A stretch of 64,000 bases of DNA from an uncultured Gammaproteobacteria bacterium (GTDB lineage Bacteria; Patescibacteriota; Microgenomatia; CAYQLK01). The notes under the pieces are model-generated. The model was not told where the DNA came from. It did not search any database and saw nothing but the letters and a program-made list of their open reading frames with translations. Shown piece by piece: positions 2,889 through 56,326 of the stretch. Each line of letters opens with the position of its first letter. The first letter of the stretch is position 1. A program made the translations under genes and the position numbers. The DNA is taken from positions 297,322 through 361,321 of the forward strand of contig CAYOLO010000001.1 of NCBI GenBank assembly GCA_964404855.1, in the 5' to 3' direction.

Positions 2889-3362
2889 TTGACCCACTTT
2901 GGTGGCGGTTATGATCCTGATGATGATTCAGATATCATCGAGGGAGAGGCTCGCGAAGTTGACGCTGACCACGAGCCACGGAGGTTTTCGTGGAAGAAGC
3001 TTCTTCTTCTTGCCCTCGCGCTCGCGGGAGCAATCCTGCTTGTTTTCGCTGCTTTCAACTCGTGTGGTGGAGGAGATTCGCAGTCTCCCGGTGACACTGA
3101 CAGTCTAACAACTGTGGTGCCAACGGAGGTTGTGACGACTCCAGAACCAACTGCGAGTGTGACCGTTAGCACTCCGACAGCCACATCAACATCTGCGGTC
3201 ACGGTTCCGACTGCGACCGTGAGAGCTGATACTGGCGACCCACTTGGGTTGACCGACGGCTCTTCAGGATCAGGTGTGGTGATGTTTGTACTAGCTTTGC
3301 TAGTTGCGACATCGTGTGTGTGGATTTTCTTCAGGAAAACCGGCCCAGAGCGGCATAGGTAA
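2889..3362 (+). CDS. small membrane protein with an acidic N-terminus, a TM, NSCGGG, a Thr/Pro-rich segment, a TATVRADTGDP motif, then a C-terminal TM and basic tail
   Basis: GGAGG at 2876-2880 lies 8 nt before a TTG start at 2889. The C-terminus TATVRADTGDPLGL-hydrophobic-FRKTGPERHR has the shape of a tripartite sorting signal. Confidence 0.55.
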   Translation: MTHFGGGYDPDDDSDIIEGEAREVDADHEPRRFSWKKLLLLALALAGAILLVFAAFNSCGGGDSQSPGDTDSLTTVVPTEVVTTPEPTASVTVSTPTATSTSAVTVPTATVRADTGDPLGLTDGSSGSGVVMFVLALLVATSCVWIFFRKTGPERHR

Positions 3363-3396
3363 AACTAGAAGGAGAGACCATTTCGACCAGATAGTT

Positions 3397-3439
3397 AACC
3401 CACTCTTGCTATTAATACGCAGAGTGGGTTATTTTTTAT
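3397..3439 (+). terminator. rho-independent terminator
   Basis: Stem aacccactct/agagtgggtt with a 14-nt loop, followed by a T-run. Confidence 0.6.
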
Positions 3440-3475
3440 CCTCTAGTTGGATTATTTTATATTACAGGTTATGCC

Positions 3476-3504
3476 TTGACAAACTATAGGTTATATTATA
3501 TAAT
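3476..3504 (+). promoter_or_regulatory. consensus sigma70-type promoter TTGACA-17-TATAAT
   Basis: ttgaca at 3476-3481, a 17-nt spacer, tataat at 3499-3504. Confidence 0.6.
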
Positions 3505-3542
3505 GTCTTTACGATTTTGAAGCTAGATTGACACCTTAAGCG

Positions 3543-4328
3543 GTGTCGGTTGAGCCTCAAGAGCGTAAAAAGTTCTTTAAATCTGCTGCTTTTCTGGTTT
3601 TGTCTCTCGCCAAAGCACCATATGGAGGTGTTCCCCTGGTTAGTACGAGAATCATTAAGATGTCTCTGGCTCTGGTAAGCGTTGTGGCACTCGCCATGAT
3701 GCTAGGCTCGATTATGCTTGGTTCTACCACAAGTGGAGCTTATGCAGATCGCCCCGATCCGACGCCAATGGGAACGAATGTTCCCAACACTCCGACCGAA
3801 GTTCCGGAGCCCTGTAAGGGTACTCCGGTATCTGGATCGGCGTGTATAACGCTGACTCCGACGCCTACGGCCACCCCGACGAAGACGGCTACTCCAACGA
3901 GTACGCCAACCAAGACGGCTACGCCTACTGCAACGAGCACACCGAAGACGCCTACGGCCACCCCGACGAAGACGGCTACGCCAAAGACGCCAACGGCAAC
4001 ACCTACTGGTACGCCGACCAAGCCGACGAAGACACCTACGCCGACCAAGACGCCGAAAACTTCGACGCCAACGGCAACACCTACGACTGTTACGGCCACT
4101 CCAACTACGGTTGTTACGGTGACGGTGACTCCGACGCCAACCGCGACCTCGGTGATTTATATCCCCACGGCTACAGTTCGTGCGGATACGGGTGATCCGA
4201 TGTTACTGGTTGGAAGCCCGACATCGGGTGGTGGTCCAGTGGGTTGGATGATGATTACTGGTGCCGTTCTGGCGCTGGTGGCAATCATCGGATTCCTCGC
4301 AATGAGGGTACGCAATCGAGAGATTTAG
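3543..4328 (+). CDS. secreted Thr/Pro-rich protein ending in TATVRADTGDP plus a TM and basic tail
   Basis: The track ORF starts at GTG 3543. The more likely start is ATG 3660, which gives a canonical signal peptide MSLALVSVVALAMMLGSIMLGSTTSGAYA. TPTKTATPT repeats. The C-terminus IPTATVRADTGDPML-TM-RVRNREI is shared with the upstream gene. Confidence 0.6.
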   Translation: MSVEPQERKKFFKSAAFLVLSLAKAPYGGVPLVSTRIIKMSLALVSVVALAMMLGSIMLGSTTSGAYADRPDPTPMGTNVPNTPTEVPEPCKGTPVSGSACITLTPTPTATPTKTATPTSTPTKTATPTATSTPKTPTATPTKTATPKTPTATPTGTPTKPTKTPTPTKTPKTSTPTATPTTVTATPTTVVTVTVTPTPTATSVIYIPTATVRADTGDPMLLVGSPTSGGGPVGWMMITGAVLALVAIIGFLAMRVRNREI

Positions 4329-8849: not shown

Positions 8850-11558
8850 ATGGTTAGAGTAATAGATAGTGTAGTAAATGACGAGAACGAAATTGCCCAT
8901 TCGATTGAGGGTTCTGTTGCAAACCCATTTGAACAATTAACACAAGAGGAGCTAGATCTTATAGGCTTGTCAGAAATATACGACAATGCCAAATTAGAAA
9001 CTATCAAAGAAACTTATAATTCTAGATTTGCTAGATCAAGAAACATTTTCAGAACATCAAAATTAAGTAATTTTTCCGAGCGTACTAAAGCTAAAGGTAA
9101 GAAAATGGCTTTTAGATCTGGAACCGCTTTTGTACTAAATTATTCCGCAGATGCTTTAAGTATTGTTCCTGTCACAGTACCGGGCGCTATTGTTGCGTCA
9201 ACGGTTGCTGGTGCGTTGGGTACTGGTTATGACAGTTTTATTAATAAACAAACATTCCACAAACTTTTTGGATATTCACAAACACAAGAATTTTTGACCG
9301 CTAAGTCAACTTTAGAACCGGATGCCTTAAAAGGCAGAAAAAGAGAATACAGAGATTTAATCGAAAGATTAGATGATGCCGATTATGCTGGTCGAGCTGA
9401 TGTTGAAGCCGATTTGGCTGAGGTTAAAAAATTAATTCGAGCCGTTGAAGATGGAATGATTTATAACGCTAGATCCTCTGTAGAGGTGAAAGTGACATCT
9501 GATAAGACTGCAGCGAATAAAGGTTGGATTGAAGTTGATGGTCTTAATGATGGTTTGGTTTATTTATACGAACAAAAAAGAAAACTTACCGGTAAATTAG
9601 TTGAATTTGAAGACGATTTTGAAGCAAAAAGAGATATTTTGCTTGGACTAATGCCAAGTGATATTGCAAAACAAAAAGACAAAGTTATTGAAGATGTAGT
9701 CGCTGAAAGAATTCAAACTCTTAAATCTCGAATTAAATCTAGACAAAACCGTATGTGGGTTGGTGAAACTGTAGCTTCTACAGCTTTATCTGTTACAGGT
9801 GGTTTGATTGTAGGTAAGTGGGTAGAAAGAAGTTTGGGTTGGGGTGAGGAAATCGCAAAAGCGACAAAATCAAGCCTGAATCAATATTTTGAATATAACA
9901 AAGATTTATTTATTGAAAACCCTGTGGCTTTTAAAGGTACTTTGTTATCTGTGGCTGATACTCATATTGCTGATCAAATCGACAAAGTTTTATCTGAAGA
10001 ACTCGATAAGCTAACCAAGGAAGAATTAAGTTTAAAAGAATTTGCAGAATTTAAGGGAATTACTGATGGTAGCCAGTTTAGGCCAATTTATGAGTCAGAA
10101 TTTTTGAATAATGCTGATTCTAATCAAATTAAATCCCTAATAAATGCAGCTGGAGAAGCTGATTTGGATACAACAGAAGGTGCAATTGATTTTGTTACAG
10201 CATCAGGAATGGACAGGTTTGCGGTTGATGTGGAGGCTAATTTGCCGATATTAACTATTTTTGAAGAAAAAGAGATTGCTACAGGAGATGAAATGGTTTC
10301 TTTAATGAAAAGAAATCCTAGAGTTTTTGGTGATCTTGATCAGAGATATATTGGTGATGTTAAGTATTTTGATGCTATTTCAAGAATGCCAAAAGAAGAT
10401 TTGGATAAATATATCCAAAGTTTTGGTGATTTGGAGCAAGGCAATTACACTGCTGAGGCTGCTGTTAAAAAACTTGAGTTTTTGGCTTCACAAGCTGATG
10501 TTTCTTACGAAGAAAGATTAGTTAGAGTACCTATTGTAGAAAATTATCAAGTTGTTAGTGGTGATAGTGTTTATCAAATTCTTGAGAAAAATAATATTGC
10601 TCTTGATAGTCCCGAGTCAGTTAAATTTGTTTCTGACAACAGAGAATCATTACTGATTACTGCGTCGCAATTTGGTAATGAAGATGATCTTAATCAGATG
10701 TTAGCTAAGATTGATTCTGGTGAAATGGATTCGATTAGTGACGATTTAGCCTTGTCTGGTCGAGCTTTGCATTGGATTAATACTGGTGACCAGTTTTCAA
10801 TACAAACAGGGTTTGAGGAAAGAGTCGAAAGAGTAGCGATAGGAGAAAAGCCTGCGTGGCTTACACCTATTGAAGCTCCAAAAATAAGCGAAGTTCCAGT
10901 TAATGGTCCTGAAACAGAACACATTGTTACTGCTGAAAAGATTATTGACCTAAGAAATAGTCATATTCCAGAAAAATTAGAGATATCCAGTATTGGATTA
11001 TCTACTGACGTTAATGAGGTTGCTAGTTTGAGTAACGTTGATTACCCATACTTAAACAGAGATTTTGTTGGACATATGGCCGAAACAGGTGCCATGGGGT
11101 ATGACGATTGGCCAAACAAAAATATGATTATTGGAGGACACGTAAGTTACCAAGGTAATCCTGCTGTTTTTTATAATCTTCACAAAGTTCAAGGCGGGGA
11201 AGTAATCAAAATAACTGACGTATCCGGTCGTGAGACTTTATACAAAATCAGAAGCATGGAAATAGTTCACGAGTCAGAAATTGGTCAGAGAGTAGGGCTT
11301 GCTTCCAATGATGAAATCCTTACTTTAATTACATGTCAGTACAATCAAAACGAAAATAAGATAGTTGTGGTTGCAGACAAGTGGAATCCAACTGTCGCTA
11401 CGACTGATGAGGATAAATTAGCTCAAATTAGAAGCCAATTAGCTGCAGTTAAACAAGTTTTTGATTTTTCTGAAGCAACTCCAGAGGTAACAAAAACTAC
11501 AAGTAATATAGCTGATCTTAAAAAGTTTAGAGATCAAATTTTGAGTAAAGTAGCCTAA
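8850..11558 (+). CDS. 902-aa protein made of a large N-terminal domain of unknown function (two hydrophobic hairpins) fused to a C-terminal class-A-like sortase domain
   Basis: The C-terminal ~170 aa match SrtA: IIGGHV (His), GGEVIKITDVSGRETLYKI, and LTLITCQYNQNENK (TLxTC catalytic Cys). Upstream there are two hydrophobic segments (residues ~90-125 and ~300-325). Confidence 0.75.
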   Translation: MVRVIDSVVNDENEIAHSIEGSVANPFEQLTQEELDLIGLSEIYDNAKLETIKETYNSRFARSRNIFRTSKLSNFSERTKAKGKKMAFRSGTAFVLNYSADALSIVPVTVPGAIVASTVAGALGTGYDSFINKQTFHKLFGYSQTQEFLTAKSTLEPDALKGRKREYRDLIERLDDADYAGRADVEADLAEVKKLIRAVEDGMIYNARSSVEVKVTSDKTAANKGWIEVDGLNDGLVYLYEQKRKLTGKLVEFEDDFEAKRDILLGLMPSDIAKQKDKVIEDVVAERIQTLKSRIKSRQNRMWVGETVASTALSVTGGLIVGKWVERSLGWGEEIAKATKSSLNQYFEYNKDLFIENPVAFKGTLLSVADTHIADQIDKVLSEELDKLTKEELSLKEFAEFKGITDGSQFRPIYESEFLNNADSNQIKSLINAAGEADLDTTEGAIDFVTASGMDRFAVDVEANLPILTIFEEKEIATGDEMVSLMKRNPRVFGDLDQRYIGDVKYFDAISRMPKEDLDKYIQSFGDLEQGNYTAEAAVKKLEFLASQADVSYEERLVRVPIVENYQVVSGDSVYQILEKNNIALDSPESVKFVSDNRESLLITASQFGNEDDLNQMLAKIDSGEMDSISDDLALSGRALHWINTGDQFSIQTGFEERVERVAIGEKPAWLTPIEAPKISEVPVNGPETEHIVTAEKIIDLRNSHIPEKLEISSIGLSTDVNEVASLSNVDYPYLNRDFVGHMAETGAMGYDDWPNKNMIIGGHVSYQGNPAVFYNLHKVQGGEVIKITDVSGRETLYKIRSMEIVHESEIGQRVGLASNDEILTLITCQYNQNENKIVVVADKWNPTVATTDEDKLAQIRSQLAAVKQVFDFSEATPEVTKTTSNIADLKKFRDQILSKVA

Positions 11559-11730: not shown

Positions 11731-13068
11731 ATGAAACTAAACAAAAAGGCGACATTTTTAACTTTAACCGGACTAGTTGTAATGTCTGGAATTTTCCCTA
11801 TGATTGGCGGCTTTGCTGCTGGTAACCCTAATTTGACTCTTGAACAAAGAGTTAAGAACTATGGCAATGGGCACGAGTCTTTAAACGAAAGCCCGTTTAG
11901 CTTTACACAAGCTGGAGCGGTTCCTAATGATTTCATGCAATATATAGTCACACTTGAAAATTCAGGTGATGACGCTAATAACGTTAAAGTAAAGGTTAAC
12001 TTGCCTGACGAAACAGTCGTGGGTAAGAAAGCTGCAGTTTACGTGGTTGGTTCAGCTGGGTTTGATATTGGTCCGGCTGTAGTTGGTGCAACTTCAATCA
12101 AATATTTTGACGATAACTCTGAAATAACTCCTGCTGGAAGCGATTCAGACGGACGAGATGAAAGAGTAGATTCTATTGAGTTTGCATTAGAAAAAGTTCC
12201 TTCTGGAACTGTTGGATCAACTGATCGTGAAATTAAGATTCAATACTCAGTTAGAATGGCTAAAGATATTGGTGAGTCAGTCGTTAACGACGCTAATGCA
12301 TCTGTTAGCTTGACCTCAACTGAAGTATCAAATGTATCTGGTAACGAAGTTCACACAAAATTATCAGGCAAACCTGAGTTTAAGACCGCTTCTGATACCT
12401 TTAAGGTTCAGGCTGGTCCAAGCGAAGAGTCTGATGATTGGAAAAATGATTCAGTCGAAATTGATCCTGAGTCTGACGCATTCTTAGGTGTTTGGGTAAA
12501 GAACTTATTCCACAACACGACTGCTAATAACCCAGTAATTGAGGTTACTTGGCCACAAGAATACAAGAACGAACACACATTGACAGCTACAATTAGCGGT
12601 TCTAATGTGTCGAGTGTCAGTGATACAGTTAAAGTTAAGATCAAGAACGGTCAAGTTAATAAGCTTGAAGTGATTGATGGTAGCTTGATGTATCAGAACT
12701 ACAATAGCCAATCAATTGGCGCAACTATTACTAAGACTGCTAATGGTTTTAGAGTGGCTGCTAATGACTCAATTGTTGGAGGTAATGCAAATGTAACCTT
12801 AGTTAATGCTCACTTAAGAGCAGTTAAACAAGGTACTACCACGACTACAACTAAAGAAAAAGTAGTTGAGAAAGAGTTTATTACTGAAAAAGTAGAAAAG
12901 AGAGTTGTTATTACTGAACTTCCTAAGACCGGTCCTGAAATATTTGGTCTGATTGGTGCTATGGGAGCAATCCCAGGCGGACTATTCTTAAGAAAGTTTA
13001 AGAGTAAAAAGAACGACTTTATCTCTTTTGGTCACGAAGTAGTAAAGAGAAACAACAAAAGAAAATAA
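11731..13068 (+). CDS. LPXTG (LPKTG) cell-wall-anchored surface protein with a DUF11/CARDB-like repeat domain
   Basis: Signal peptide MKLNKKATFLTLTGLVVMSG. The C-terminus is LPKTG, then a hydrophobic stretch PEIFGLIGAMGAIPGGLFL, then RKFKSKK. An internal YIVTLENSGDDANNVKVKVNLPDE motif resembles DUF11. Confidence 0.8.
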   Translation: MKLNKKATFLTLTGLVVMSGIFPMIGGFAAGNPNLTLEQRVKNYGNGHESLNESPFSFTQAGAVPNDFMQYIVTLENSGDDANNVKVKVNLPDETVVGKKAAVYVVGSAGFDIGPAVVGATSIKYFDDNSEITPAGSDSDGRDERVDSIEFALEKVPSGTVGSTDREIKIQYSVRMAKDIGESVVNDANASVSLTSTEVSNVSGNEVHTKLSGKPEFKTASDTFKVQAGPSEESDDWKNDSVEIDPESDAFLGVWVKNLFHNTTANNPVIEVTWPQEYKNEHTLTATISGSNVSSVSDTVKVKIKNGQVNKLEVIDGSLMYQNYNSQSIGATITKTANGFRVAANDSIVGGNANVTLVNAHLRAVKQGTTTTTTKEKVVEKEFITEKVEKRVVITELPKTGPEIFGLIGAMGAIPGGLFLRKFKSKKNDFISFGHEVVKRNNKRK

Positions 13069-17091: not shown

Positions 17092-20000
17092 CTAGTTGAG
17101 GCTAAGCTCTTGGTTGATGATTAGATAGCTGACGGTCAGGTCTACTGTTTGAACTTGGGCAAGTTTAACCCTAAACCCTATACCAGCTAGTTTTTCTGTG
17201 ACGCTAACGGCAACTGGTAGATCTCCTTCGACTGTGAGCAGAATGATTGAGTTCTCGGTCACAGCAGTTGTTTCGACGTCAAATAGGTCGTATCCACTGG
17301 TTAAGAGTGTGTTGCCGGCGATGCGGTTGAGCGGATTTTCCTCGTCACCTTTAACTGTAATAGTACTGACTGTGAGGTCTTTAGTTTCGAGCTTGGCTAT
17401 TTTGACCAAACCTTCGGTGTCAATTACAAGTGATCCTCTGAGTAGGTCAAGTCCGCCAGAAGTTGGTAAGTTTTGTAGGTATAGAGTGCCTGATAGCACA
17501 TTTAATTGGCTGCCGAGACCGTCTGCGGTGGTATCGAGGGTAAATATTCCGTCCTGACTTAAACTTCCAGCAATATTAGTGTTACTTAGTGAGACTGAAT
17601 TGAGGAATTCAACTTCGTCTTTGAAAGTTGCTTGTTGTTCGACTGTTAGATTAATAACTGTTAAATCTTGAGGTTCTTGGTTTTCAAGCTCAGCTGATTG
17701 ACTAGATTCTGGTTGCGCACTTTCTGAGGCGCCAAGTACGGCAGACGAAGAGGCGATAGCGTCGGTAATCATCTTATCTATTTCTTCCCTAGTAATCGGA
17801 CCTTGGGCTTCTACTTGTTGGTTATTAGGAGTAACTTCGGAGTTTTCTTCACCATCGATACTGCCGTTGATGCCAATTAGAAGTTTGAGATTTTCTTCAG
17901 ATAATGTTGTTTGTCCAATGGTTATGGAATCATTAGCAACGATGTTCGTAGCTTCAATAATATCTTGGATTTGAGTTATTTCTGAGAGTATTTCTTCTTC
18001 AGTGAATTCTGTTTCTTCGCTTGTGGAATAGTTTGGAGCTTCCCCTGGGACAAATCCTCGTCCGTCTTGTTTGTTGGCAACATTGCCCCATTTTTCGTGA
18101 TCAAAACGAGGCGCGGTAAGACGATATGAGATTTCACAGTTACAGTTGCCGAAGATAGTTAAACGATTATTGGCTGGATCTCTTTCGTACCAGACTTTGG
18201 CGCGGCTGTCGTTAGCACTAAGAAGTACGACTAAGTCCTTCATATTTTGCCCAAAATCGGTGATTCGGTAGAAAAGCCCTAGGTCGCTTGAAGTTTCAAG
18301 TTCTGGGAAGTTGATTTGATATGAGAAGTTGCCAGTTGAACCCTCTGGGCGAGTAAGATTGGCAACGCCAGTTGTTTCTTCTTTTTGACCAGTCATAGAA
18401 GCTACATAAGTAGCGTATTTGGTACCATCGATGAAATATGGCGGGTCGATTGTTCCAAAGTCAACTTTAAGAGTTCCGTCGCCAAAGTTGATTTCTCCGT
18501 TGGTTGGGTCGTTACTCTGGATTACTGATCCATTGGTAAGGGTAATTGTTGAGGCAACCGGTGACGATTCCAATACAAAATGACTGTCTTCAGTCGCGCT
18601 GTTATTATTGCGACCTCCGAGATAGGAAGCTGATGTGTCTCTGACCCATCCCCATGCAGAGCTTGTGGTGGTGGTACAACTAGCACCAACACCATCGTTT
18701 TGACCTGCAACTTGAAGGACATATTTGGAGCCTGCTTGGACTAAGACTGGGGTCGTTAAGACAAATCTGGCCCAAGTAACCGCGCTACCGATATTTAATG
18801 TTTGGTAAGGTCCAGCGAGTAGTGTTCCAGCGCCATCTGAACCGTTTTCGTCATATATACAAACTGAAGCTTCCTCGGTTGCGCCCGCCATACTTATTTT
18901 GGCTTGGACGGTAGATAGATAAATATCAGCGGCTGGAGTGAAGGATTGGGTTTTTACAGCTGTAGCTGAGTTAACTGTGGTTGAGTTGCTAAAGAATCCA
19001 TGGTTGGTGTTTTTTGAGGCCTCCATAGTGAATAGGTAATCAGTCGAGGCGCTGGCTTCTGAGCGACCGCCTGAGTAAATATCAGAAGCAGAAACCGCCC
19101 ATTGCCAAGCTGATGAGGTAGTGGTGGTACATCCTGCGCCGACACCTGTGTTTTGTAGGGCAATTTGAAGAACGTATTTATTATTTCCAAGTAGCGGTAC
19201 GGCTGTGTTAAATGAGAATCTAACATGGCTTATTGTTGATGAAATATTGAGTGTTTGATTAGACATGGCAATTAGTGTGCCTGGGGCATCAGAGTTGTTG
19301 TCATAAATACAAGCAACAGCTTCTTCTGTACCGTTAGTTGATAAAATTTTTGCAACCACAGCAGTAACAGACATTGGGGTGTCTGGGGTGAATGATTGAT
19401 ATTTGGCTGTAGTGTCACTAGTACCGCTGGTGGCAGAGTTGATGATTGCGACACCAGTACCAGAGATGTCTGCGTAAATAGCACCTGTTGCAGAGAATAT
19501 TTCGCCACCGTCTGAGTTGGCGGTATCAAGAATTCTAAGAAGGTTGTTTGTTCCGTCGCGGAAGTTGAATATGCCGTTGTTAGCAACATCAATATTAAGA
19601 GTAGAAGCAGTTGTTGTGATGTCTCCACCGTTAACTGCCACATCGCTAGCGGTTGTAATCAGACCAGCTGTAGAAATACTCCAGTTATCGTCCGTAATTG
19701 AAAGGTTGGTGGTGCTGGCTGAACCTATTGTAATTGTGTTAGCAACTGCGCCGGTTCCAATTTGCACAGTTTTGGCGTTTGTGGCGCCAGTGGCAATTTG
19801 CACTGTTGTTGCTCCAGTGCCAGAGCCAATCGCTACGGTGTTTGTACCACTAGATTGGCCTAAAGTTAATAATCCGGTTTGGGCTGTACCTCCAAAGGTC
19901 ATAGTGCCAGTTGTGGTGCTAGCGCCAACTGTATATGTGGTTCCTGCAACACCATCTAAAGTAAAGTTACCACTACCTGCTCTGAGGTTAAGTGCGTTAG

Positions 20001-22512
20001 CTCCAGATGTATTACCAATTGTGATTGTACCTGTGTAGGAGCTAGTTCCAAGGTTAATCGCGGTTGATCCTGATGTGTTAATGTCAAAAGTGCCGGTGGA
20101 GGTAACACCAGTAGCTCCAGTAATTGCACCAGCGCCTGTAATGTCAAGGGAAGCTGTGTTGAGGAAGTTTGATACAGTTCCTGATATTTCGATAGCGTCT
20201 GTTAGGGTGCCCGAGGTATTGGTAATCATGAGCGCGTTGCTTAAGTTGCTTGAAGCAGCATTGTTTTCAATAAAAATTCCGTTCGTAACAGTTTCTGGAG
20301 TTTTAAGGTTCTCTACCTTGAATAAGGTATCAAAAGCACCAGTGGTAGCTGTGTCGGCTTGGGTTATAAGCATTCCATTAAGTGTGCCAGTTGCGCCTGT
20401 TCCGCTTGGCGTAAGGGTATATGTGTAGCCCGTAGTTGTGGCATCTGTTGTTGGTGTAAAGTTTTGAGCCCAAGTGTAAGTTGCTTGGTTTAGGATAAGG
20501 TTGGCATCGAGATCAAGGGTGTCAGCAAAATCTACAAAGTCAAGAGAGTTGGACGAAGAAGTGGAGTTACAGTTGCCATAGGTTGGTTGGTTACCTGTGC
20601 CGTTGCTTTTAAGACAATCTCCAGATGTGGCGCTTGGGTTGACCTGGTTAAGTACACCACCAGAGGCAATAGTGATAACTGAGCCAACAGTGCTAAGCGA
20701 GGAGAAAGTAATTGTGCCAGAGGAGCTAAGTCCTGTGAATGTAGCTACGCCTGGACCTGTTACACTCCAGTTAGCATCAGAGATAGCAATGTTAGCACTG
20801 CCATTGCCAATGGTGGCTGTGCCTGAATATGAGCTTGTACCAATGTTGATAGCAGTTGAGCCTGATGTGTTGATGTCAAAAGTACCAGTGGAGGTAACAC
20901 CAGTAGCTCCAGTAATTGCACCAGCGCCTGTAATGTCAAGGGAAGCTGTGTTGAGGAAGTTTGATACAGTTCCTGATATTTCGATAGCGTCTGTTAGAGT
21001 TCCAGCTGTGTTGGTAATGTTAATACCATTACTGAGCGTACCTGAGGCTGCATTGTTTTCGATATAAAGCCCGTTTGTGGTTGTTTCTGGAGTTTTAAGG
21101 TTTTCAAGTTTTAGTAGAGAGTCAAAAACGCCTGTATTAGCATTGTCGGATTGAGATATCACAAAACCTTGAAGTGTGCCCGAAGAACCTGTACCTGTTG
21201 GATTGAGTGTGAGCGAGGCTGCGTTTATGGTTGCATCAGAAGTAGGAGTATTAGTGATTTGAATATTGGATCCTTCACCGTTGGTCACGATTAAGTCACC
21301 TGTGCCGTTCGGCGCAAGTGTTAGCGAACCATTGCTGTTAGTGCCAATTGTGGCTGCGCCGCTGAAAATTAGGTTGCCCGAAGAATCTAGAACAGGAACT
21401 TGATTAATATCTGGTGTTTGTGAAGGGAAATAACCAGCTAGAGCGTCGGCGTTAAGTGCATAAGCACTAGAAACTATTCTTTGCCTTGGGGTCATTTCTG
21501 AATCGGCACCGACAGTGACTCCTAGATACAAAGTAGCATTCTCACTAAATAGAGTGCTAGGAATTGTTGTATCTGCAGCACCTGTGTCTCCAAGTAGGAC
21601 TGAAAAAATACCATTCGAGTCTGGTGTAATATTCCAAGTTTTTGATGTCCATTGAGCACTCCCACCTGATGACACAGTGTAGATTTTGAACACAAAGTCG
21701 GTAGCAGAAGTTATTGGAGAACCTGAAGCGTTAGTAATTCGACCTTGGAAAGAAAGAATTCTTGGAGGAGCAACAGCGGCAAGAACTTGACCTTCAAGTG
21801 GGGATGGTTGTGGCGTTTCAAGACTGATTTGGGTTCGGTTGGGGGTAAGCATGAATGTTGATCCAGAGATAACTAGCGCCATTGTGGCGAGCCCAAGGAA
21901 TATTTTTTGTGAGAAGTGTAATTTGGATTTTTTGGTTAGGGTTTTTTGTGGTAAGCCGAGGAGATCTGTTAGTGGCTTGTAAGAAAAACCCCATTTTTTA
22001 AGTTTTTCAAGCTCTTGAGAGAGAGCAAGAAGGCTGATTGCAGCTCCGACAGTCTGCGTTTCGGAGCTGCTGACAGCTTGATTTGCATTGTTTGCCTCAA
22101 TGCTGGCTGTGTTTGTAACTATCTGCTCTGTGGAGTGGTTTGTCAGGTGTGAAAACCCGTTTGCCTCAAACCATTTTGAGAGAGATTTTAGAAATTTGAT
22201 TTGTCGAGAAAGTGTGGATTTAGCAAACTTGTTCTGAACATCCTTGTGGTAGAGCTCGATTGTTTCAATATCGAGTTTGGGATAGTTGGTTCGATTTTGT
22301 TTAATCGACCAAATGACGAATTTCTTTAAATCGGAGCGGTAATTACTATAAGTTGATTTGGATGTTGACGAGAGGGCGAGTGTTTCGAAGTAACCTTTGG
22401 AAGCGTTGAGTATACCAAGAGCAAACTCTTTTTTGGAGTTTTGGACAGGTTTATTTATAGTGCTGGCAGGTATCTTAAGGCCTGAGGCAAACAGGACTTT
22501 TTTCATTGTCAA
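17092..22512 (-). CDS. giant (1806 aa) type-II membrane-anchored surface protein with an N-terminal cytoplasmic integrase-SAM-like domain, one TM, and a huge Thr/Ser/Gly-rich beta-rich ectodomain with internal tandem-duplicated modules
   Basis: N-terminus KSTYSNYRSDLKKFVIWS...IELYH...FAKSTLSRQIKFLKSLSKWF matches the phage-integrase N-terminal SAM-like pattern. TM IFLGLATMALVISGSTFML. Two ~230-aa near-identical modules and two ~150-aa QSFTP...CTTTTSSAW(Q/G)W domains. Confidence 0.75.
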   Translation of the reverse strand: MTMKKVLFASGLKIPASTINKPVQNSKKEFALGILNASKGYFETLALSSTSKSTYSNYRSDLKKFVIWSIKQNRTNYPKLDIETIELYHKDVQNKFAKSTLSRQIKFLKSLSKWFEANGFSHLTNHSTEQIVTNTASIEANNANQAVSSSETQTVGAAISLLALSQELEKLKKWGFSYKPLTDLLGLPQKTLTKKSKLHFSQKIFLGLATMALVISGSTFMLTPNRTQISLETPQPSPLEGQVLAAVAPPRILSFQGRITNASGSPITSATDFVFKIYTVSSGGSAQWTSKTWNITPDSNGIFSVLLGDTGAADTTIPSTLFSENATLYLGVTVGADSEMTPRQRIVSSAYALNADALAGYFPSQTPDINQVPVLDSSGNLIFSGAATIGTNSNGSLTLAPNGTGDLIVTNGEGSNIQITNTPTSDATINAASLTLNPTGTGSSGTLQGFVISQSDNANTGVFDSLLKLENLKTPETTTNGLYIENNAASGTLSNGINITNTAGTLTDAIEISGTVSNFLNTASLDITGAGAITGATGVTSTGTFDINTSGSTAINIGTSSYSGTATIGNGSANIAISDANWSVTGPGVATFTGLSSSGTITFSSLSTVGSVITIASGGVLNQVNPSATSGDCLKSNGTGNQPTYGNCNSTSSSNSLDFVDFADTLDLDANLILNQATYTWAQNFTPTTDATTTGYTYTLTPSGTGATGTLNGMLITQADTATTGAFDTLFKVENLKTPETVTNGIFIENNAASSNLSNALMITNTSGTLTDAIEISGTVSNFLNTASLDITGAGAITGATGVTSTGTFDINTSGSTAINLGTSSYTGTITIGNTSGANALNLRAGSGNFTLDGVAGTTYTVGASTTTGTMTFGGTAQTGLLTLGQSSGTNTVAIGSGTGATTVQIATGATNAKTVQIGTGAVANTITIGSASTTNLSITDDNWSISTAGLITTASDVAVNGGDITTTASTLNIDVANNGIFNFRDGTNNLLRILDTANSDGGEIFSATGAIYADISGTGVAIINSATSGTSDTTAKYQSFTPDTPMSVTAVVAKILSTNGTEEAVACIYDNNSDAPGTLIAMSNQTLNISSTISHVRFSFNTAVPLLGNNKYVLQIALQNTGVGAGCTTTTSSAWQWAVSASDIYSGGRSEASASTDYLFTMEASKNTNHGFFSNSTTVNSATAVKTQSFTPAADIYLSTVQAKISMAGATEEASVCIYDENGSDGAGTLLAGPYQTLNIGSAVTWARFVLTTPVLVQAGSKYVLQVAGQNDGVGASCTTTTSSAWGWVRDTSASYLGGRNNNSATEDSHFVLESSPVASTITLTNGSVIQSNDPTNGEINFGDGTLKVDFGTIDPPYFIDGTKYATYVASMTGQKEETTGVANLTRPEGSTGNFSYQINFPELETSSDLGLFYRITDFGQNMKDLVVLLSANDSRAKVWYERDPANNRLTIFGNCNCEISYRLTAPRFDHEKWGNVANKQDGRGFVPGEAPNYSTSEETEFTEEEILSEITQIQDIIEATNIVANDSITIGQTTLSEENLKLLIGINGSIDGEENSEVTPNNQQVEAQGPITREEIDKMITDAIASSSAVLGASESAQPESSQSAELENQEPQDLTVINLTVEQQATFKDEVEFLNSVSLSNTNIAGSLSQDGIFTLDTTADGLGSQLNVLSGTLYLQNLPTSGGLDLLRGSLVIDTEGLVKIAKLETKDLTVSTITVKGDEENPLNRIAGNTLLTSGYDLFDVETTAVTENSIILLTVEGDLPVAVSVTEKLAGIGFRVKLAQVQTVDLTVSYLIINQELSLN
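19700..21280 (-). repeat. tandem duplication of a ~790-bp coding module inside the giant gene (identical core 20078-20215 = 20870-21007)
   Basis: The antisense track ORFs 20075.. and 20597.. share the identical 45-aa stretch LMSKVPVEVTPVAPVIAPAPVMSREAVLRKFDTVPDISIASVRVP at a 792-bp offset. Confidence 0.6.
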
Positions 22513-22897: not shown

Positions 22898-23428
22898 TTA
22901 ATCCTTATTCTTGAACGCTTTGAATTTGGTAATACCAAGATAGATTACTGTTAATGAAAGAATGCCGATAATTATTCCAGCTAAGAAGTGATTATTTTGA
23001 ATCGCGAATAATAATTTTAGTGGGGCGTTAAGAATAGTGGTTGGAGATTCTGGATTAAGTAATCGATAAAGAGCGATTTGTTGTTTTTCTAATTCGTCTA
23101 TTTTGTCAATTATTTCATCTTTTTCGGGAGGGGTTAGTGGTTTGCCTTTAGTAGGAGTAGGTATAGCAGTTGGAGTCGGTGTAGGGGTGCTGGTGGGTCC
23201 AGGAGTAGGTGTAGATGTTGGTCCTGGGGTTGGTGTTGAAGTGGTGCCTGGAACTGGTGTAGGGGTTGGTGTCGGTGTCGGTGTTGGGGTTGCTGTTGGA
23301 CAAATATTTACACAAGCTGTGGTGTTGACGTCTTCAGCGCGAACTTCTGTTTGAATAATAAACAGTAGTACTAGTGATAGTAGTGGAATGGTTAGTTTGG
23401 GCAGCATTTGGGCAATATTATACTGCAT
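22898..23428 (-). CDS. small secreted Thr/Pro-rich protein with a C-terminal TM anchor
   Basis: Signal peptide, CVNIC, TPTPTPTPTP linker, coiled DEIIDKIDELEKQQ, and a C-terminal TM + KFKAFKNKD. Confidence 0.5.
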   Translation of the reverse strand: MQYNIAQMLPKLTIPLLSLVLLFIIQTEVRAEDVNTTACVNICPTATPTPTPTPTPTPVPGTTSTPTPGPTSTPTPGPTSTPTPTPTAIPTPTKGKPLTPPEKDEIIDKIDELEKQQIALYRLLNPESPTTILNAPLKLLFAIQNNHFLAGIIIGILSLTVIYLGITKFKAFKNKD

Positions 23429-23467
23429 AGATTTTGACCATATTTAACCAAAATAAATGTTGTAAGG

Positions 23468-23500
23468 TCAAAAAAAAACACTCCCCGAGTGCAGGAGTGC
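23468..23500 (-). terminator. rho-independent terminator for the minus-strand gene 23597..24652
   Basis: Read on the minus strand: cactcc(tgcactcgg)ggagtg followed by T9. Confidence 0.65.
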
Positions 23501-23508
23501 TTTAAGAT

Positions 23509-23546
23509 GAACCGAACCGAACCGAACCGAACCGAACCGAACCGAG
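23509..23546. repeat. (GAACC)7 pentanucleotide microsatellite
   Basis: gaaccgaaccgaaccgaaccgaaccgaaccgaacc, lying between the stop of gene 23597..24652 and its terminator. Confidence 0.9.
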
Positions 23547-23596
23547 CTAAAAATATTGAACAAGTTGCAAGTGCGAGGCAGTAGATATTTAAGATG

Positions 23597-24652
23597 TTAC
23601 TTCTTCTTTTGAATCTCTGCAATAATCTTGCGGCGGTATGCTCTCAGTGCGAGAACTATCAGCATAACGACTACCGCGATTGCAAGTCCAGCGACGGATA
23701 GAGCCTTCCAAGGGATTACCCAGAACGAAGTGCTTGAGCTTACAATGTCATTTTTGAGTCCGTAGCTAGCAATAACTTCTACGGTGTATTTTCCGAAACC
23801 AAATTCTGGATTGAATTTGCCAACGAAACTTCTGACTGCTCCTGGAAGAACCGAAAGGGCAGAGTTGTTAAATGATTCTCTAGAAACTTCGTTGCCGAAC
23901 ATGTTACGGACTATAATGTCTCCAGCAGGGGTAAGATGGACAGAACCTGAGTTTTCAAGTCTGGCTTCGATACTTACTGGTCCAGATTCGTACATAGACT
24001 TGTCTGTTTTGATGCTTGAGATAGAGAGAGCCTCTTCAACATCTCCAGAAACTCTAACTAAAACGACTGGTCCGGTTCTGGTAATAACTTTCGAACCAGT
24101 TCCAGCTGCTTTTTCAGGAGGAGTGGTGGTTATAAAAACAGCGCCAAAATGTCCGCCTGGTTCAGCGTCTTTTGGAACAGCGATTGAGAAACTAAAAGCT
24201 TCAGAAGATTTTGGATCAATGGTAACTTGAGTTTTTGAAGCTCTGATCCAACTAGCTAATGCGTATTGATTATTAAGTGGTGATTCAGAAAATACAGCAT
24301 CACCGTTTTCGTTAATTGTTTCAATATCAGCGAGAGTTACGTAGTATGTAAGCGGGTCGTCTGATTTGTTGTCGATAACAACTTGGTGAGAACTGGTTTG
24401 ACCAGGGTCTAGGTTGAGATCAAACTTGATTGGCGAGAATGTGATGTTGGTTTCAGCAACCTGCTGTTGAGCGGCTTGAGGTTGTGCTGAAGGAGTTGAT
24501 GCACTTGGTACTCCAATTGGTGTTAATGAATTATTTTCGGATTTGAGTGGTTGAGAAGAAGGGTTGGTTTGAGCTAGTACTGGTGAGGTAGCAAGCGAAA
24601 CTATAAAAGCGGACGAAGCCAATGTAATGGCTAGTTTTTTGGGCAGATTCAT
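23597..24652 (-). CDS. cell-surface protein: signal peptide, Q/P-rich linker, beta-rich domain, C-terminal TM anchor + basic tail (CscA/DUF916-like architecture, tentative)
   Basis: MNLPKKLAITLASSAFIVSLATSPVLA signal. C-terminus SVAGLAIAVVVMLIVLALRAYRRK. Confidence 0.6.
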   Translation of the reverse strand: MNLPKKLAITLASSAFIVSLATSPVLAQTNPSSQPLKSENNSLTPIGVPSASTPSAQPQAAQQQVAETNITFSPIKFDLNLDPGQTSSHQVVIDNKSDDPLTYYVTLADIETINENGDAVFSESPLNNQYALASWIRASKTQVTIDPKSSEAFSFSIAVPKDAEPGGHFGAVFITTTPPEKAAGTGSKVITRTGPVVLVRVSGDVEEALSISSIKTDKSMYESGPVSIEARLENSGSVHLTPAGDIIVRNMFGNEVSRESFNNSALSVLPGAVRSFVGKFNPEFGFGKYTVEVIASYGLKNDIVSSSTSFWVIPWKALSVAGLAIAVVVMLIVLALRAYRRKIIAEIQKKK

Positions 24653-24688
24653 ATTTGTTTTTTTAATTATATATATAAAAATTACAAA

Positions 24689-25744
24689 TTAAAAGATACC
24701 ATAACTAGTATAAGTTAGGGTATTCGTATAGGTACCGGCAGGTTGTGTACCAGTGATTTCTAGCGAGTAGCCAATATCTGCAGTTCCACCAGCTCCTGTG
24801 CCGTTTACAGGTCCACCAGCGTCAAATATTTTGTAAGAAGTTGTACCAGTGAATCCTCCAAATATTGTTCCAGTTGTGTCAAAAGCAGAACCTGATACCA
24901 CATCGGTAGAGGTAAAGCCAAAATGACCCCCTGAAGTTGGTGTGGACCAAGTTGTTTCTGAGTTAAGAGCAGGCGGGGTACCATCATCGAATGAGTTAAT
25001 AGTGTCAGCAGTACCGTTAGTTAGGTTAGCTGACTGTCTAACTGAAGTATTGTGACCGTTAGATGCGTTAGTAGAGACCGTTAGTGTGTGGCAGTGGGTG
25101 TATTGAGTAGCAGTTGATAATGCAACTCCGTTATTGAAGTTAATTGAAGAGGCAGTAGTCCCACTTGATTCACAAGTGTCTCCACCGGAACCAACTGTGC
25201 CAGAGCTTTTGGCGGCTATTGTGAAGTCGTATGTTGCGTTGATTGTGGCGGTAACAGTAACTTGATCTTCTGTTAAGACATCAACGGCAACATTGGAAGA
25301 ATCTTCGTAAGTTCCATCGTTGTTGGCGTCTGTTTCGACTGTGATTACATAAGTAGCAGCCGAAGGGTTAGTGCTAGCTGGAACAACAAAGGTAACAGTA
25401 TCACCGGCATCACAGCTTGAAACAGAGGTGATTGTGCTAGCAAAAGGGCTAGCGCCATTGAATATACCAGCAGTTCCTGCACAAGACCCGTTACCGGTGA
25501 ATGTTGGAGTTAGTGAACCAAACGAAAAGTCGGCAGTAGTTAGTCTGACTCTAGAGGTTGAGCCGAGAGTAGAAGCTAGAGTAAAGGTAAAAGTATGAGT
25601 TGAAGATACGCCAGTTTTAAGCCTGGACATATTGTCAGAAACATCGACTAGTGCGGCAGCTCTGGCAGTCTTGGGCGGGACAAGTGTAAGTAGAATGCTA
25701 ACTATTGGCAGAATAGCAAGAAGTGATAGCTTAGAAATTTTCAT
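24689..25744 (-). CDS. secreted beta-rich surface protein, paralogue 1 of 3 (C-terminal ...GTYTNTLTYTSYGIF)
   Basis: Signal peptide with ARAAA cleavage. Ser/Thr/Gly-rich. Shares a C-terminal domain with the next two genes and with the C-terminus of the 2556-aa protein. Confidence 0.7.
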   Translation of the reverse strand: MKISKLSLLAILPIVSILLTLVPPKTARAAALVDVSDNMSRLKTGVSSTHTFTFTLASTLGSTSRVRLTTADFSFGSLTPTFTGNGSCAGTAGIFNGASPFASTITSVSSCDAGDTVTFVVPASTNPSAATYVITVETDANNDGTYEDSSNVAVDVLTEDQVTVTATINATYDFTIAAKSSGTVGSGGDTCESSGTTASSINFNNGVALSTATQYTHCHTLTVSTNASNGHNTSVRQSANLTNGTADTINSFDDGTPPALNSETTWSTPTSGGHFGFTSTDVVSGSAFDTTGTIFGGFTGTTSYKIFDAGGPVNGTGAGGTADIGYSLEITGTQPAGTYTNTLTYTSYGIF

Positions 25745-25747
25745 GGT

Positions 25748-26809
25748 CTAAAAAATACCGTAGCTAGTGTAGGTGAGAGTGTTGGTGTAAGTACCAGGCT
25801 CCTGTGTACCAAGGATTTCTAGAGAGTAACCGACATTACTAGCAAAGGCGCTAACAGCAGCTGATTCGTCCTGAATCTTGTAGGCAGTGGTACCAGTGAA
25901 CCCGGCAAAGCTTGTGCCGACGGATGAGAAAGATGACCCACCCCAAGTATCACTGGAAGCAAAGCCGAAATGACCTGGTGAGGTAGGTGTTGACCAAGTT
26001 GTTTCTGAGCCAACTGAAGGTGGTGTACCATCATCAAACGAGTTGATAGTGTCTGAGGTACCGTTGGTTAGGTTAGCAGATTGGGCAACAAAGCTTCTAA
26101 AACCAGCAGTAGCGTTAGTGGAGACTGTTAAAGTATGACAGTGAGTGTATTGGGTTGAAGTCGAAAGATTAACACCGTTGTTGAAGTTAATTGAAGAAGC
26201 AGTCGTTCCACTCGATTCGCAAGTGTCACCACCAGAACCAACAGTACCAGATGTTTTGGCAGTAACAGCAAAGTCAAAAGTAGCACCAATTGAAGCTGAA
26301 ACAGTAACTTGATCCTCAGTTAAGATGTCAACGGCAACATTAGACGAGTCTCCGTCTGTGTAGGTGCCGTCGTTGTTAGGGTCAGTTTCAATAACGAATA
26401 CATAAGTAGCAGCTGCAGGGTTGGAAATAGCTGATGTTGTAAGCGTGACCACATCACCTGAACCACAACCAGAAACAGAAGTAAGGTTGGTAACATTTGA
26501 TGACCAAGCGCCGGTTGTAGCTGAACAGCCACCTGTAGCAGAGAAACCTGGGGTACCGGTGTAGGAGAAGCTTGCTTGGGTGATTCTTATTTTAGATGAG
26601 CTACCAAGAGTAGTGGATAAAGTGAATGTCCAAGTGTGGGTGGCAGAAACACCAGTTTTTTGACGGGAAAGGGCATTGCTAACACTCGTAAGTGAGGCTG
26701 CGGCTGTTTGTTTGGGGGTAAGCGTAATTAAAGTGGTCGAAAGAACAACTGCAATAAGGCAGAGTACCGATAGTTTTTTAACGGTTTTGGTTGTTTGGCG
26801 CAGTCGCAT
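25748..26809 (-). CDS. secreted beta-rich surface protein, paralogue 2 of 3
   Basis: Signal peptide. The C-terminal ~198 aa are identical to paralogue 3. Confidence 0.7.
   Translation of the reverse strand: MRLRQTTKTVKKLSVLCLIAVVLSTTLITLTPKQTAAASLTSVSNALSRQKTGVSATHTWTFTLSTTLGSSSKIRITQASFSYTGTPGFSATGGCSATTGAWSSNVTNLTSVSGCGSGDVVTLTTSAISNPAAATYVFVIETDPNNDGTYTDGDSSNVAVDILTEDQVTVSASIGATFDFAVTAKTSGTVGSGGDTCESSGTTASSINFNNGVNLSTSTQYTHCHTLTVSTNATAGFRSFVAQSANLTNGTSDTINSFDDGTPPSVGSETTWSTPTSPGHFGFASSDTWGGSSFSSVGTSFAGFTGTTAYKIQDESAAVSAFASNVGYSLEILGTQEPGTYTNTLTYTSYGIF
25770..26346. repeat. ~580-bp perfect direct repeat, copy A (3' half of paralogue 2)
   Basis: Identical embedded track ORFs 25819..26037 and 26973..27191, and identical flanking sequence. 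The offset is 1154 bp. Confidence 0.8.
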
Positions 26810-26901
26810 TCTTAATATAAAAAGATGTTATCCCAATGATTACAATTAGCTACTGGTTTGTCAATAACTGGAATTGGTTAATTTAACTTAACAATAAAAC
26901 T

Positions 26902-27981: not shown

Positions 27982-27992
27982 AAAAAATATCT

Positions 27993-28925
27993 CTAGTTGT
28001 CAATTGGCTTTTTGGACTTTTTGAAGACTTTGATGCTAAGAATAATTGCAGTTAGTAAAAGTACTATTGTAATTAGTGGATAAGCGATATATCCAAGTGA
28101 GGGAATAATATAAATTGTGAATTCTTGAGATGTGTACTTAACACCATTGTCCCCAGTGACGGTGGAGCTTACCTTGTAGATGCCTGGAGTGGTGTCGGTT
28201 ATGTAGATTGCTGGTGGAATATTTTTTTCGAGAGTTGTTGTCATTTGTCTGACAGCTCCCGCTAAGATGTTTTGGGGAATAATCGGGATTATTTTTTGGC
28301 TTTTGCTATCAATTATCGAAGTCAAAACTATGGAACCTTCGATAGTTTGAAATTTATTTAGATTGTTTTGAACAGTGAGAGAAAGAGTAGATTTACCGAT
28401 TTGCTGAATTTTTTCTCCCGTTAAGGATATTTTGATATCACCTTCGATTTTTTTCTTGTCAAAAAGTGAAAGGATGATGTTTGAAGCTACAGACGGTTGG
28501 ATAGTAGCGGAGCTTTTTTTGGAATCAGGTTCAGGTGAAATTGGAGAGGCTAAAATTGCAAAATAAAAATCTTGTTCTTCAATTGTTTCAGGAACATTGA
28601 TGCGAAACCCGATTGTTTGATCTTCAGCACTGGTTGCTTTGGTAATTGGCGGGAAAAACTGCACCCATTTTGTAACAGGGTAGTTGGGGTTATCGGGTAA
28701 GAGTTTGATAAGGCCTTGAGTGCCATCGGCTTCAAATTGGCGAATGCTGAATTGATAAGTACTACCGGTATCGGCGGAAAACTTAAAAGTGCCATTAATG
28801 CCATTACCTGGTTTGCCTTTTATTTCGAAATGAGAGGGTTCAATCGCGACGGTCGAAGCATTAACTACATTATATATGGAGAAAAAAATTATTAAGCTAA
28901 AAAGCGGGGCAAGGACTTTTTTCAT
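27993..28925 (-). CDS. cell-surface protein: signal peptide, two beta-rich domains, C-terminal TM anchor + KKSKK tail (CscA/DUF916-DUF3324-like architecture, tentative)
   Basis: MKKVLAPLFSLIIFFSIYNVVNA signal. C-terminus YPLITIVLLLTAIILSIKVFKKSKK. Confidence 0.6.
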   Translation of the reverse strand: MKKVLAPLFSLIIFFSIYNVVNASTVAIEPSHFEIKGKPGNGINGTFKFSADTGSTYQFSIRQFEADGTQGLIKLLPDNPNYPVTKWVQFFPPITKATSAEDQTIGFRINVPETIEEQDFYFAILASPISPEPDSKKSSATIQPSVASNIILSLFDKKKIEGDIKISLTGEKIQQIGKSTLSLTVQNNLNKFQTIEGSIVLTSIIDSKSQKIIPIIPQNILAGAVRQMTTTLEKNIPPAIYITDTTPGIYKVSSTVTGDNGVKYTSQEFTIYIIPSLGYIAYPLITIVLLLTAIILSIKVFKKSKKPIDN

Positions 28926-28940
28926 TGGTTGTATTTTAGC

Positions 28941-49726: not shown

Positions 49727-52622
<2,896 letters not shown>

Positions 52623-56321: not shown

Positions 56322-56326
56322 CATCT

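Follow-up and report, generated by a model that had tools for sequence, protein, structure and literature searches.

A constrained C-terminal ADTGDP module in two adjacent Thr/Pro-rich envelope proteins of a probable Microgenomates-type bacterium: a possible variant of the sortase-type anchoring signal

Background

The stretch of DNA analysed here (64,000 nucleotides of contig CAYOLO010000001.1, assembly GCA_964404855.1, hereafter the window and numbered from its first nucleotide) codes for two adjacent envelope proteins, A and B, both of which carry the peptide PTATVRADTGDP shortly before a C-terminal hydrophobic helix. The question raised by this locus is what the shared peptide does: is it a signal at which the proteins are cut and transferred to the cell wall, or an element that stays in place beside the membrane? 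Experimental knowledge of how bacteria of the Candidate Phyla Radiation (CPR, Patescibacteria) build and decorate their envelopes is scant, and it is their surface proteins that mediate a host-attached lifestyle. As set out below, the C-terminal module of A and B is real, strongly constrained and restricted to one lineage, and it is a possible variant of a sortase-type anchoring signal.

Results and discussion

A shared C-terminal module

The two genes and the segments of their products are the following, with open reading frame (ORF) lengths in amino acids (aa).

2889-3362, + strand: protein A, ORF of 157 aa
3000-3056, + strand: first transmembrane (TM) helix of A, TM1, L38-F56
3207-3242, + strand: motif PTATVRADTGDP of A, residues 107-118 of the ORF translation
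3276-3332, + strand: C-terminal helix of A, V130-F148, followed by the tail RKTGPERHR, to 3359
3476-3504, + strand: perfect sigma-70-type promoter consensus upstream of B, TTGACA-17-TATAAT
3543-4328, + strand: protein B, longest ORF, from a GTG start at 3543, 261 aa
3660-4328, + strand: protein B from its probable start, ATG at 3660, 222 aa
4164-4199, + strand: motif PTATVRADTGDP of B, residues 208-219 of the long ORF translation
4245-4304, + strand: C-terminal helix of B, W235-M254, followed by the tail RVRNREI, to 4325

In both proteins the C-terminus runs from PTATVRADTGDP through a Gly/Ser-rich spacer of 10-17 aa (LGLTDGSSGSG in A, MLLVGSPTSGGGPVG in B) to a hydrophobic helix and a basic tail, and the same tripartite layout recurs in every orthologue of A and B that was found. 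The first-pass annotation of this DNA had described such C-termini on the two adjacent proteins, and the ORF translations bear this out; the run that it gave as 11 identical residues is indeed identical, but extends over 12. An alignment of 14 C-termini widens the conserved region to a block of about 19 aa, TS[AV][VI]x[VI]P[TS][AV]T[VI][RQ]ADTGDP[LMF], and both families have an S-G-x-G, nearly invariant, where the helix begins. In the same region, Cys143 of the terminal helix is invariant across family A, and the tail of family B is nearly invariant (R[VLM]R[NS]REI). Outside the shared block, BLASTP detects no significant similarity between A and B, on which ground chance identity of the block is excluded. 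An AlphaFold2 (AF2) model of A, built from a five-sequence alignment, contains only two helices (residues 35-58 and 128-151), and the remainder, including the motif, has a confidence score (pLDDT) below 50; the motif of A is thus a linear one that lies in predicted disorder.

Constraint on the peptide

Comparison of the motif codons took in 11 distinct DNA versions, from contigs L001, L004, L006, L155, L156, L175 and L176. Within the window, A and B differ synonymously at 11 of the 12 motif codons in the DNA alignment (Arg, for example, is encoded by AGA in A but by CGT in B), so that their identity at the amino-acid level is maintained by selection on the peptide. The amino acids ADTGDP are unchanged in all 14 C-termini and all 11 DNA copies, while the codons vary: Ala is written GCT, GCG, GCA or GCC, Thr and Pro use all four of their codons, and Arg appears as AGA, AGG, CGT or CGG. 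This combination points to constraint on the peptide. The sole substitutions in the core are V/I at its first position and, in a single orthologue of family A (L175/P0012), Q in place of R; the family B copy on that same contig keeps R. The codon pattern indicates that the motif peptide is under strong purifying selection, and it excludes gene conversion, a repeat at the DNA level and a duplication of recent date as the source of the shared motif.

Several known kinds of element were considered for the peptide and rejected. A DNA-level repeat or recombination site is contradicted by conservation that is limited to first and second codon positions. The DTG could recall the signature of aspartic proteases, for which a folded domain is missing, and GDPH-type autoproteolysis would call for a vWD fold and a His, both of which are lacking. 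Cleavage by signal peptidase at 'VRA/D' would have the wrong orientation relative to the helix.

Proteins A, B and U

The N-terminus of protein A is a conserved acidic, cytoplasmic segment (FGG..DPDDD.DIIEGE.RE). TM1 is followed by an invariant Cys in 'NSCGGG', which resembles a lipoprotein-type cleavage region, and a Thr/Pro-rich loop of about 65 residues then leads to the motif. The pattern N(S)CGGG[DE] after a long N-terminal region and a hydrophobic segment is seen both in A (2889-3362) and in a protein encoded at 60464-61141, which directly adjoins the second of the two sortase genes described below; it may be a non-classical lipobox of this organism. The cytoplasmic tail of A (FFRKTGPERHR, 3333-3359) has KTGPE in common with the sequence ELPKTGPEIF of an LPKTG protein encoded nearby (12900-12930). 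This is probably a coincidence, since the tails of the orthologues retain only [RK]xT[GRA].

Translation of protein B probably starts at the ATG at 3660, because its orthologues, as well as the gene-called P0009, begin with MSLALV. Its cleavable-looking signal peptide, read from the sequences and alignments, ends in AYA/D. The mature protein begins with a tip that contains a Cys pair, EPCKGTPVSGSAC, with the well-conserved consensus DRPDPTP.GTNVP.TPTEV.EPCKGTP..GS.CITL, and continues as a Thr/Pro/Lys-rich stalk whose length varies among strains (P0009 has 193 aa, versus 222 aa here). Both proteins thus have an export signal, in B the hydrophobic N-terminus up to AYA/D and in A the TM helix followed by the invariant Cys. 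Neither A nor B matched any Pfam or NCBIfam family. The two are best explained as tandem, anciently diverged paralogues that form Thr/Pro-rich envelope stalk proteins of an uncultivated bacterium with a small genome, probably of Microgenomates type (CPR).

Upstream of A lies a third gene, and the three form the cassette U-A-B.

1859-2758, + strand: protein U, 299 aa, first gene of the U-A-B cassette

A promoter-like site and a terminator hairpin accompany each of the three genes separately, and the gene of A also has a ribosome-binding site. Protein U consists of an N-terminal signal or anchor, a Thr/Pro-rich linker encoded in part by 42-bp tandem repeats (2261-2385), and a C-terminal domain (about 120 aa), with no anchor at the C-terminus; no Pfam or NCBIfam family was matched. 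In a single-sequence AF2 model of low confidence (pLDDT 50) the C-terminal domain is all-beta. Next to the N-terminal membrane segment U carries a conserved motif, YVLRVPMVAADSASG, with a loose likeness to VRADTGDP (V-x-A-D-S/T-A/G). The U orthologue on contig L155 has an additional N-terminal domain and is without this juxtamembrane motif.

Distribution of the module

Relatives were collected by a RadA-anchored scan with one genome per species, which yielded four close relatives. L004, L005 and L006 stem from the metagenome-assembled genomes CAYQLK01, CAYROP01 and CAYUKQ01. The gene order pgk-gap-U-A-B-S1-radA is retained in L004 (RadA 99% identical) and L006 (81%), in both of which the two motifs are intact. 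A divergent metagenomic contig, L155, has the order gap-U-A-B-S1-radA-PIN/TRAM-sortase fusion-LPKTG protein, and the U-A-B cassette is also kept in L175 and L176. Families A and B are always adjacent, between gap and the S1 protein gene.

Searches of large protein collections returned these same families. A word-indexed, phmmer-type search with A against 5.8 billion clusters matched 8 clusters, all of them orthologues or fragments of A. A profile of the shared C-terminus, compared with 1.84 billion representatives without a word index, matched 7 proteins at E<=1e-3, namely 5 orthologues of A or B and 2 repeat artefacts; a protein with a short core only, e.g. ADTG, would escape the profile and database searches used. 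When metagenomes were scanned at the DNA level with TVxADTGDP in degenerate form, two of the matches listed (at least 120) were true, both of them A orthologues, and 118 of those listed were chance matches in GC-rich unrelated frames. Alignment searches of the 5.8-billion-protein database with the C-terminal module or the B tip as query gave nothing, despite the presence of exact members, probably owing to compositional filtering of Thr/Pro-rich queries, by which distant homologues of B, some of them perhaps with a canonical LPXTG in this position, would also be missed. The literature searched for RADTG, ADTGDP, LADTG, GGIII-CTERM and sortases in CPR contained nothing relevant to the motif.

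The first-pass annotation had suggested that the motif may be the recognition sequence of an uncharacterised sorting or anchoring pathway. The distribution gives no support to a new general pathway, as the motif with its helix occurs in only two adjacent families among the 1.84 billion representatives. Recognised sorting signals are typically common to several unrelated proteins; by this Haft-type criterion, what is found here is two adjacent families. The searches identify the motif as a lineage-specific candidate anchoring or recognition motif, carried by two gene families of one small lineage.

Sortases and a canonical substrate in the window

Two sortase genes and one canonical substrate are encoded in the window.

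8850-11558, + strand: sortase 1, 902 aa, with a C-terminal sortase domain at residues 710-843 (Pfam Sortase, E=1e-16)
11731-13068, + strand: canonical sortase substrate; its C-terminus has ...ELPKTGPE, with 2 aa from LPKTG to a hydrophobic segment, then a basic tail
59630-60391, + strand: sortase 2, 253 aa (Pfam Sortase, E=1.4e-18)

The LPKTG protein scores 16.1 bits as a whole protein, and 21 bits as an isolated C-terminus, against the LPXTG anchor model TIGR01167 (cutoff 15.9). As it passes that model, the organism uses a canonical signal with a 2-residue spacer. One canonical LPXTG substrate is thus seen in the same 64 kb as two sortase genes.

In sortase 1, about 700 residues of unassigned function with internal hydrophobic segments precede the sortase domain, and a Lys aligns with the catalytic Arg197 of Staphylococcus aureus SrtA (TC QYNQNEN K IVVVA), a replacement that is kept in L004, L005 and L155. 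Its synteny with A and B is retained in L155. Sortase 1 is a candidate processing enzyme for the two proteins, but it is more probably dedicated to the adjoining LPKTG protein.

Sortase 2 consists of an N-terminal TM segment, a linker of about 60 aa and a domain with the catalytic His (FSHS), Cys (QTCDPPG) and Arg (WKRLLV). Its neighbours have no C-terminal signal, and no substrate gene adjoins it. From its sequence, sortase 2 is a candidate enzyme for the motif. The first-pass annotation had reported this gene as a second, divergent sortase, and the Pfam match confirms a sortase; it had also raised a link to the motif, which finds no backing in the map, where sortase 2 is 55 kb from A and B with no substrate beside it. 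Even the nearer sortase gene is 4.5 kb away from A and B, with housekeeping genes between.

Both enzymes match generic sortase models, and those of classes D, C and F weakly. Against the class E model NF033747, sortase 2 reaches 18.8 bits (cutoff 160) and sortase 1 gives no match. The closest solved structures belong to classes D and C (E~1e-3 to 1e-4), and the nearest solved relative of sortase 2 is 4d70 (PDB name: sortase family protein; E~1e-3). Among the ORFs of the 64-kb window scanned with Pfam there is no exosortase, archaeosortase, rhomboid or CAAX-type protease, nor is a gene for any of these enzymes found beside the U-A-B cassette in the related loci.

A divergent sortase-type signal?

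The reading that we favour, tentatively and short of calling it probable, is that the C-terminal module of A and B is a divergent xAxTG sortase-type cell-wall sorting signal. In this scheme the exported proteins would be held in the membrane by their helix and basic tail, and one of the organism's sortases would accept [R/Q]-A-D-T-G, in the form x-A-x-T-G, as a variant of LPXTG/LAXTG and cut it between Thr and Gly. In protein A the putative scissile bond is T115-G116; IPTATVRADTGDPLGL is a peptide that represents the motif. The Thr/Pro-rich stalk would then be transferred to a peptidoglycan precursor, such that B would become a wall-linked stalk displaying a small disulfide-loop tip, and A would be tethered both to the membrane, by its N-terminal TM helix or a lipid anchor, and to the wall. 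What the sequences show is the layout of the module, its purifying selection, its confinement to two families and the presence of sortases; the recognition by a sortase, the site of cleavage and the identity of the enzyme are the parts of this scheme that we infer.

Several features are consistent with such a signal. The T-G pair stands at the right distance from the C-terminus, with Ala at P3 and, after the Gly, an acidic residue of the kind common in LPXTG signals. The motif directly follows a Pro/Thr-rich segment, which is the usual place of wall-spanning regions in Gram-positive surface proteins, and its predicted disorder, together with the flexible spacer before the helix, would leave it accessible to an extracytoplasmic enzyme. 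B has a cleavable-looking signal peptide. Two sortase genes share the 64 kb with the one canonical LPXTG substrate seen, and sortase 2 has a complete His/Cys/Arg set and no adjoining substrate. Pro occupies P3 in about 90% of sorting signals, and Ala at this position is the hallmark of class E LAXTG signals, such as those of the Streptomyces coelicolor chaplins (PMC5148588).

The comparison with curated models is less favourable. The full A and B proteins gave no match to any curated sorting-signal model at E<=0.1. Isolated C-termini, examined at a permissive threshold, yielded 14.0 bits for one B orthologue against TIGR01167, below the cutoff of 15.9 and over model positions 6-33 only. This resemblance of the TM segment and tail to the anchor part of the model counts in favour of a sortase-type signal, but where the model aligns, its LPXTG positions fall on the spacer and not on RADTG. 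The helix of B (GGPVGWMM...) scored 13.9 bits against NF041738, GG_III-CTERM (cutoff 22), while MYXO-CTERM reached 8.6 bits (cutoff 20) and the LAVTG model a trivial score. The earlier description of the motif as neither LPXTG, PEP, PGF nor GlyGly thus stands insofar as no curated model is matched; it is overstated insofar as R-A-D-T-G can be read as x-A-x-T-G.

Besides the absence of any LPXTG or other curated model above its cutoff, further points weigh against a sortase signal. The motif has T-G and Ala at P3 but Arg or Gln at P4, and to our knowledge Arg at P4 is absent from the characterised sortase motifs. P4 varies (R/Q, even within L175), while the Asp at P2 and the Asp-Pro at P2'-P3' are invariant, a pattern that reverses canonical sortase recognition. 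The conserved block of about 19 aa is far longer than a pentapeptide, and the spacer of 10-17 aa contrasts with 2 aa in the organism's own LPKTG protein. The invariant Cys in the family A helix and the near-invariant family B tail are unexpected for a propeptide that is discarded, and A carries a second, N-terminal membrane anchor. Neither sortase adjoins A or B, and the motif is confined to two gene families in the databases searched. Finally, neither sortase is class E-like, and enzymes of classes A, B and D leave signals with Ala at P3 unprocessed (PMC5148588).

Alternative explanations

The pattern of conservation just described also suits an uncleaved, membrane-proximal recognition motif, with the C-terminal helix as a permanent anchor, and we consider this nearly as likely as the sortase-type reading. 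The beta-prone TSVIxIPTATV strand and the ADTGDP turn would form a linear motif about 15 residues above the membrane, and the stretch across the putative T-G bond, ADTGDPLGLTDGSSGSG, would be kept. In that case A would sit in the membrane as a helical hairpin, and B would be a stalk anchored at its C-terminus; the partner bound could be the all-beta domain of U, peptidoglycan, a membrane complex, or A and B themselves. Such a role would suit the length of the block with its alternating hydrophobic positions, the invariance of P2, P2' and P3' beside a variable P4, the invariant Cys and near-invariant tail at the two C-termini, and the lack of a match to any sorting-signal model. The conserved cytoplasmic N-terminus and TM1 of A make a two-helix hairpin natural, and the motif is confined to two tandem paralogues of a conserved U-A-B cassette. 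However, the partners are hypothetical, prediction leaves the motif by itself disordered, and a non-covalent contact near the membrane seems redundant given the TM anchor. As to U, its N-terminal architecture is different in L155, and U, A and B are separate transcription units. On this reading it would also be by chance that [A]xTG, with an acidic residue after it, stands just as far from a helix with basic tail as in canonical signals. The sortase-type reading is placed slightly ahead because [A/P]xTG and an acidic residue upstream of helix and tail, in a genome with sortases, would otherwise be coincidental.

A broader proposal, which we think unlikely, is that Microgenomates-type CPR possess a C-terminal processing or anchoring system peculiar to their lineage, in which ADTGDP is what the enzyme recognises, be it a sortase of unseen specificity or a non-sortase enzyme. 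The unseen specificity would mean Arg/Gln at P4, Ala at P3, Asp as a requirement at P2 and Asp-Pro following the Gly of the scissile bond; A would act as a covalent membrane-to-wall tether and B as a wall-linked, glycoprotein-like stalk. A sorting signal for a different, non-sortase enzyme, e.g. an intramembrane or membrane-surface protease/transpeptidase that uses the SGxG boundary of the helix, is distinctly unlikely; it would correspond to the uncharacterised pathway of the first-pass annotation. By analogy with rhombosortase/GlyGly-CTERM or archaeosortase/PGF-CTERM, ADTGDP would be an extra recognition element. The near-invariant S-G-x-G before the helix in both families and the sub-threshold score of B with GG_III-CTERM speak for it, as do a conservation pattern at odds with sortase logic and a motif matched by no curated model and on which literature was not found; yet no gene for such an enzyme is seen in the window or beside the cassette in related loci, exosortase-type motifs adjoin the helix directly but ADTGDP is separated from it by 10-17 residues, and only two substrates exist in the databases searched. 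We regard it as very improbable that the block is functionless, as a remnant of tandem duplication or a compositional similarity of Thr/Pro-rich proteins. The genes do adjoin, both products are Thr/Pro-rich, and 'PTAT' resembles the stalk repeat unit. But [RQ]ADTGDP is not of low complexity and bears no likeness to that unit, the remainder of A and B is without detectable similarity, and synonymous sites are saturated between the paralogues and among the 11 copies, with the amino acids fixed. The codon data contradict this explanation, and biased gene conversion at the amino-acid level is implausible. The first-pass annotation had held that confinement of the motif to these two genes would reduce it to simple duplication; the confinement is essentially what we find, but with saturated synonymous sites simple duplication is insufficient to account for it.

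Other features of the window

The surroundings of the cassette include a minus-strand cluster of surface proteins (22898-38988) with a giant protein of 2556 aa (28941-36611); a protein of 1806 aa (17092-22512) is encoded just outside it. Three paralogues of the cluster (24689-27981) end in ...GTYTNTLTYTSYGIF, and a C-terminal TM segment with basic tail occurs in two cluster proteins, one of them (23597-24652) with a match to WxLIP_PGBD (E=1.9e-11). By appearance, these genes encode a wall-display system of the non-covalent WxL type, here in a genome of CPR-like character. Also in this region is a 762-aa membrane protein (36700-38988, - strand) with TPR repeats and a weak match to Wzy_C (O-antigen ligase-like). 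Wzy_C-type enzymes include protein O-oligosaccharyltransferases, and one may speculate that this protein might add glycans to the Thr/Pro-rich stalks encoded by the U-A-B cassette.

A probable integrated element ends shortly before sortase 2.

54200-58900: probable integrated element
55197-56321: HTH_17 excisionase-like protein
56282-57214: Erm/KsgA-type rRNA adenine dimethylase
57224-58834: large serine recombinase

The recombinase gene runs at its 3' end into a tRNA gene of the opposite strand (58816-58888), and sortase 2 is just beyond the element. GC skew of the + strand, calculated in 2-kb bins, is strongly positive (about 0.1-0.38) across the window (1-64000), even under the - strand genes (17-39 kb). 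It is about 0 in the bins at 2-4 kb, which contain the Thr/Pro-coding cassette, and at 56-58 kb, within the integrated element, and 0.037 at 54-56 kb; the low skew at 54-58 kb fits a foreign origin of the element. The one-sided skew of the window resembles the G/C strand disparity that has been reported for Microgenomates of the order UBA1400 (PMC7143001). Taken with a separate 23S-5S unit and with gene content typical of a small genome, it suggests that the organism is a Microgenomates-type member of the CPR.

A 23S rRNA gene (49729-52624) and a 5S rRNA gene (53248-53364), with a tRNA gene ahead of them, occupy the region 49470-53364; no 16S gene is found near this 23S-5S unit, an unlinked rRNA arrangement. 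ComEC is split into two overlapping ORFs, which code for the Competence domain (42633-43820) and the metallo-beta-lactamase domain (43817-44641).

Significance of the module

Should cleavage prove true, sortase recognition would be extended to a charged P4 with Ala at P3 outside the Actinobacteria, and a possible orthogonal pair of sortase and tag for protein ligation would be at hand. If the C-terminus is not cleaved, the motif would mark a site of interaction close to the membrane, conserved within an envelope cassette of three genes. The scope is narrow either way: two genes of one small lineage are concerned, with no current bearing on any general question.

Comparison with known anchoring systems

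Like the LPXTG/LAXTG signals described by TIGR01167, the C-termini of A and B are composed of a motif, a hydrophobic segment and a basic tail, with T-G, Ala at P3 and an acidic residue after the Gly; likewise, they follow a Pro/Thr-rich segment, belong to proteins with an N-terminal export signal and occur in a genome that has sortase genes. Unlike those signals, they have a variable Arg/Gln instead of Leu at P4, an invariant P2, a conserved block of about 19 aa and a spacer of 10-17 aa, compared to roughly 2-9. In addition, their scores remain below the model cutoff, the local sortases are not of class E, and the two substrates reside in one cassette.

The dedicated single-target sortases, e.g. 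class B SrtB with motifs of the NPQTN or QVPTGV type and the class GN 'marine' enzymes, resemble the present case in their non-LPXTG motif and in having one or two substrates per lineage. In such systems the gene of the enzyme adjoins that of its target, whereas the nearest sortase to A and B is 4.5 kb off and has an LPKTG neighbour of its own, and the other is 55 kb away.

The PEP-CTERM, PGF-CTERM, GlyGly-CTERM and GG_III-CTERM systems differ from A and B in that their signature abuts the helix, in contrast to ADTGDP at 10-17 residues from it; A and B pass the cutoff of none of these models, and a cognate enzyme gene is not seen in the window. They have in common with A and B the tripartite C-terminus and the Gly-rich boundary of the helix (SGxG / SGGGP), and the haloarchaeal S-layer glycoproteins share with them a Thr-rich region ahead of the signal.

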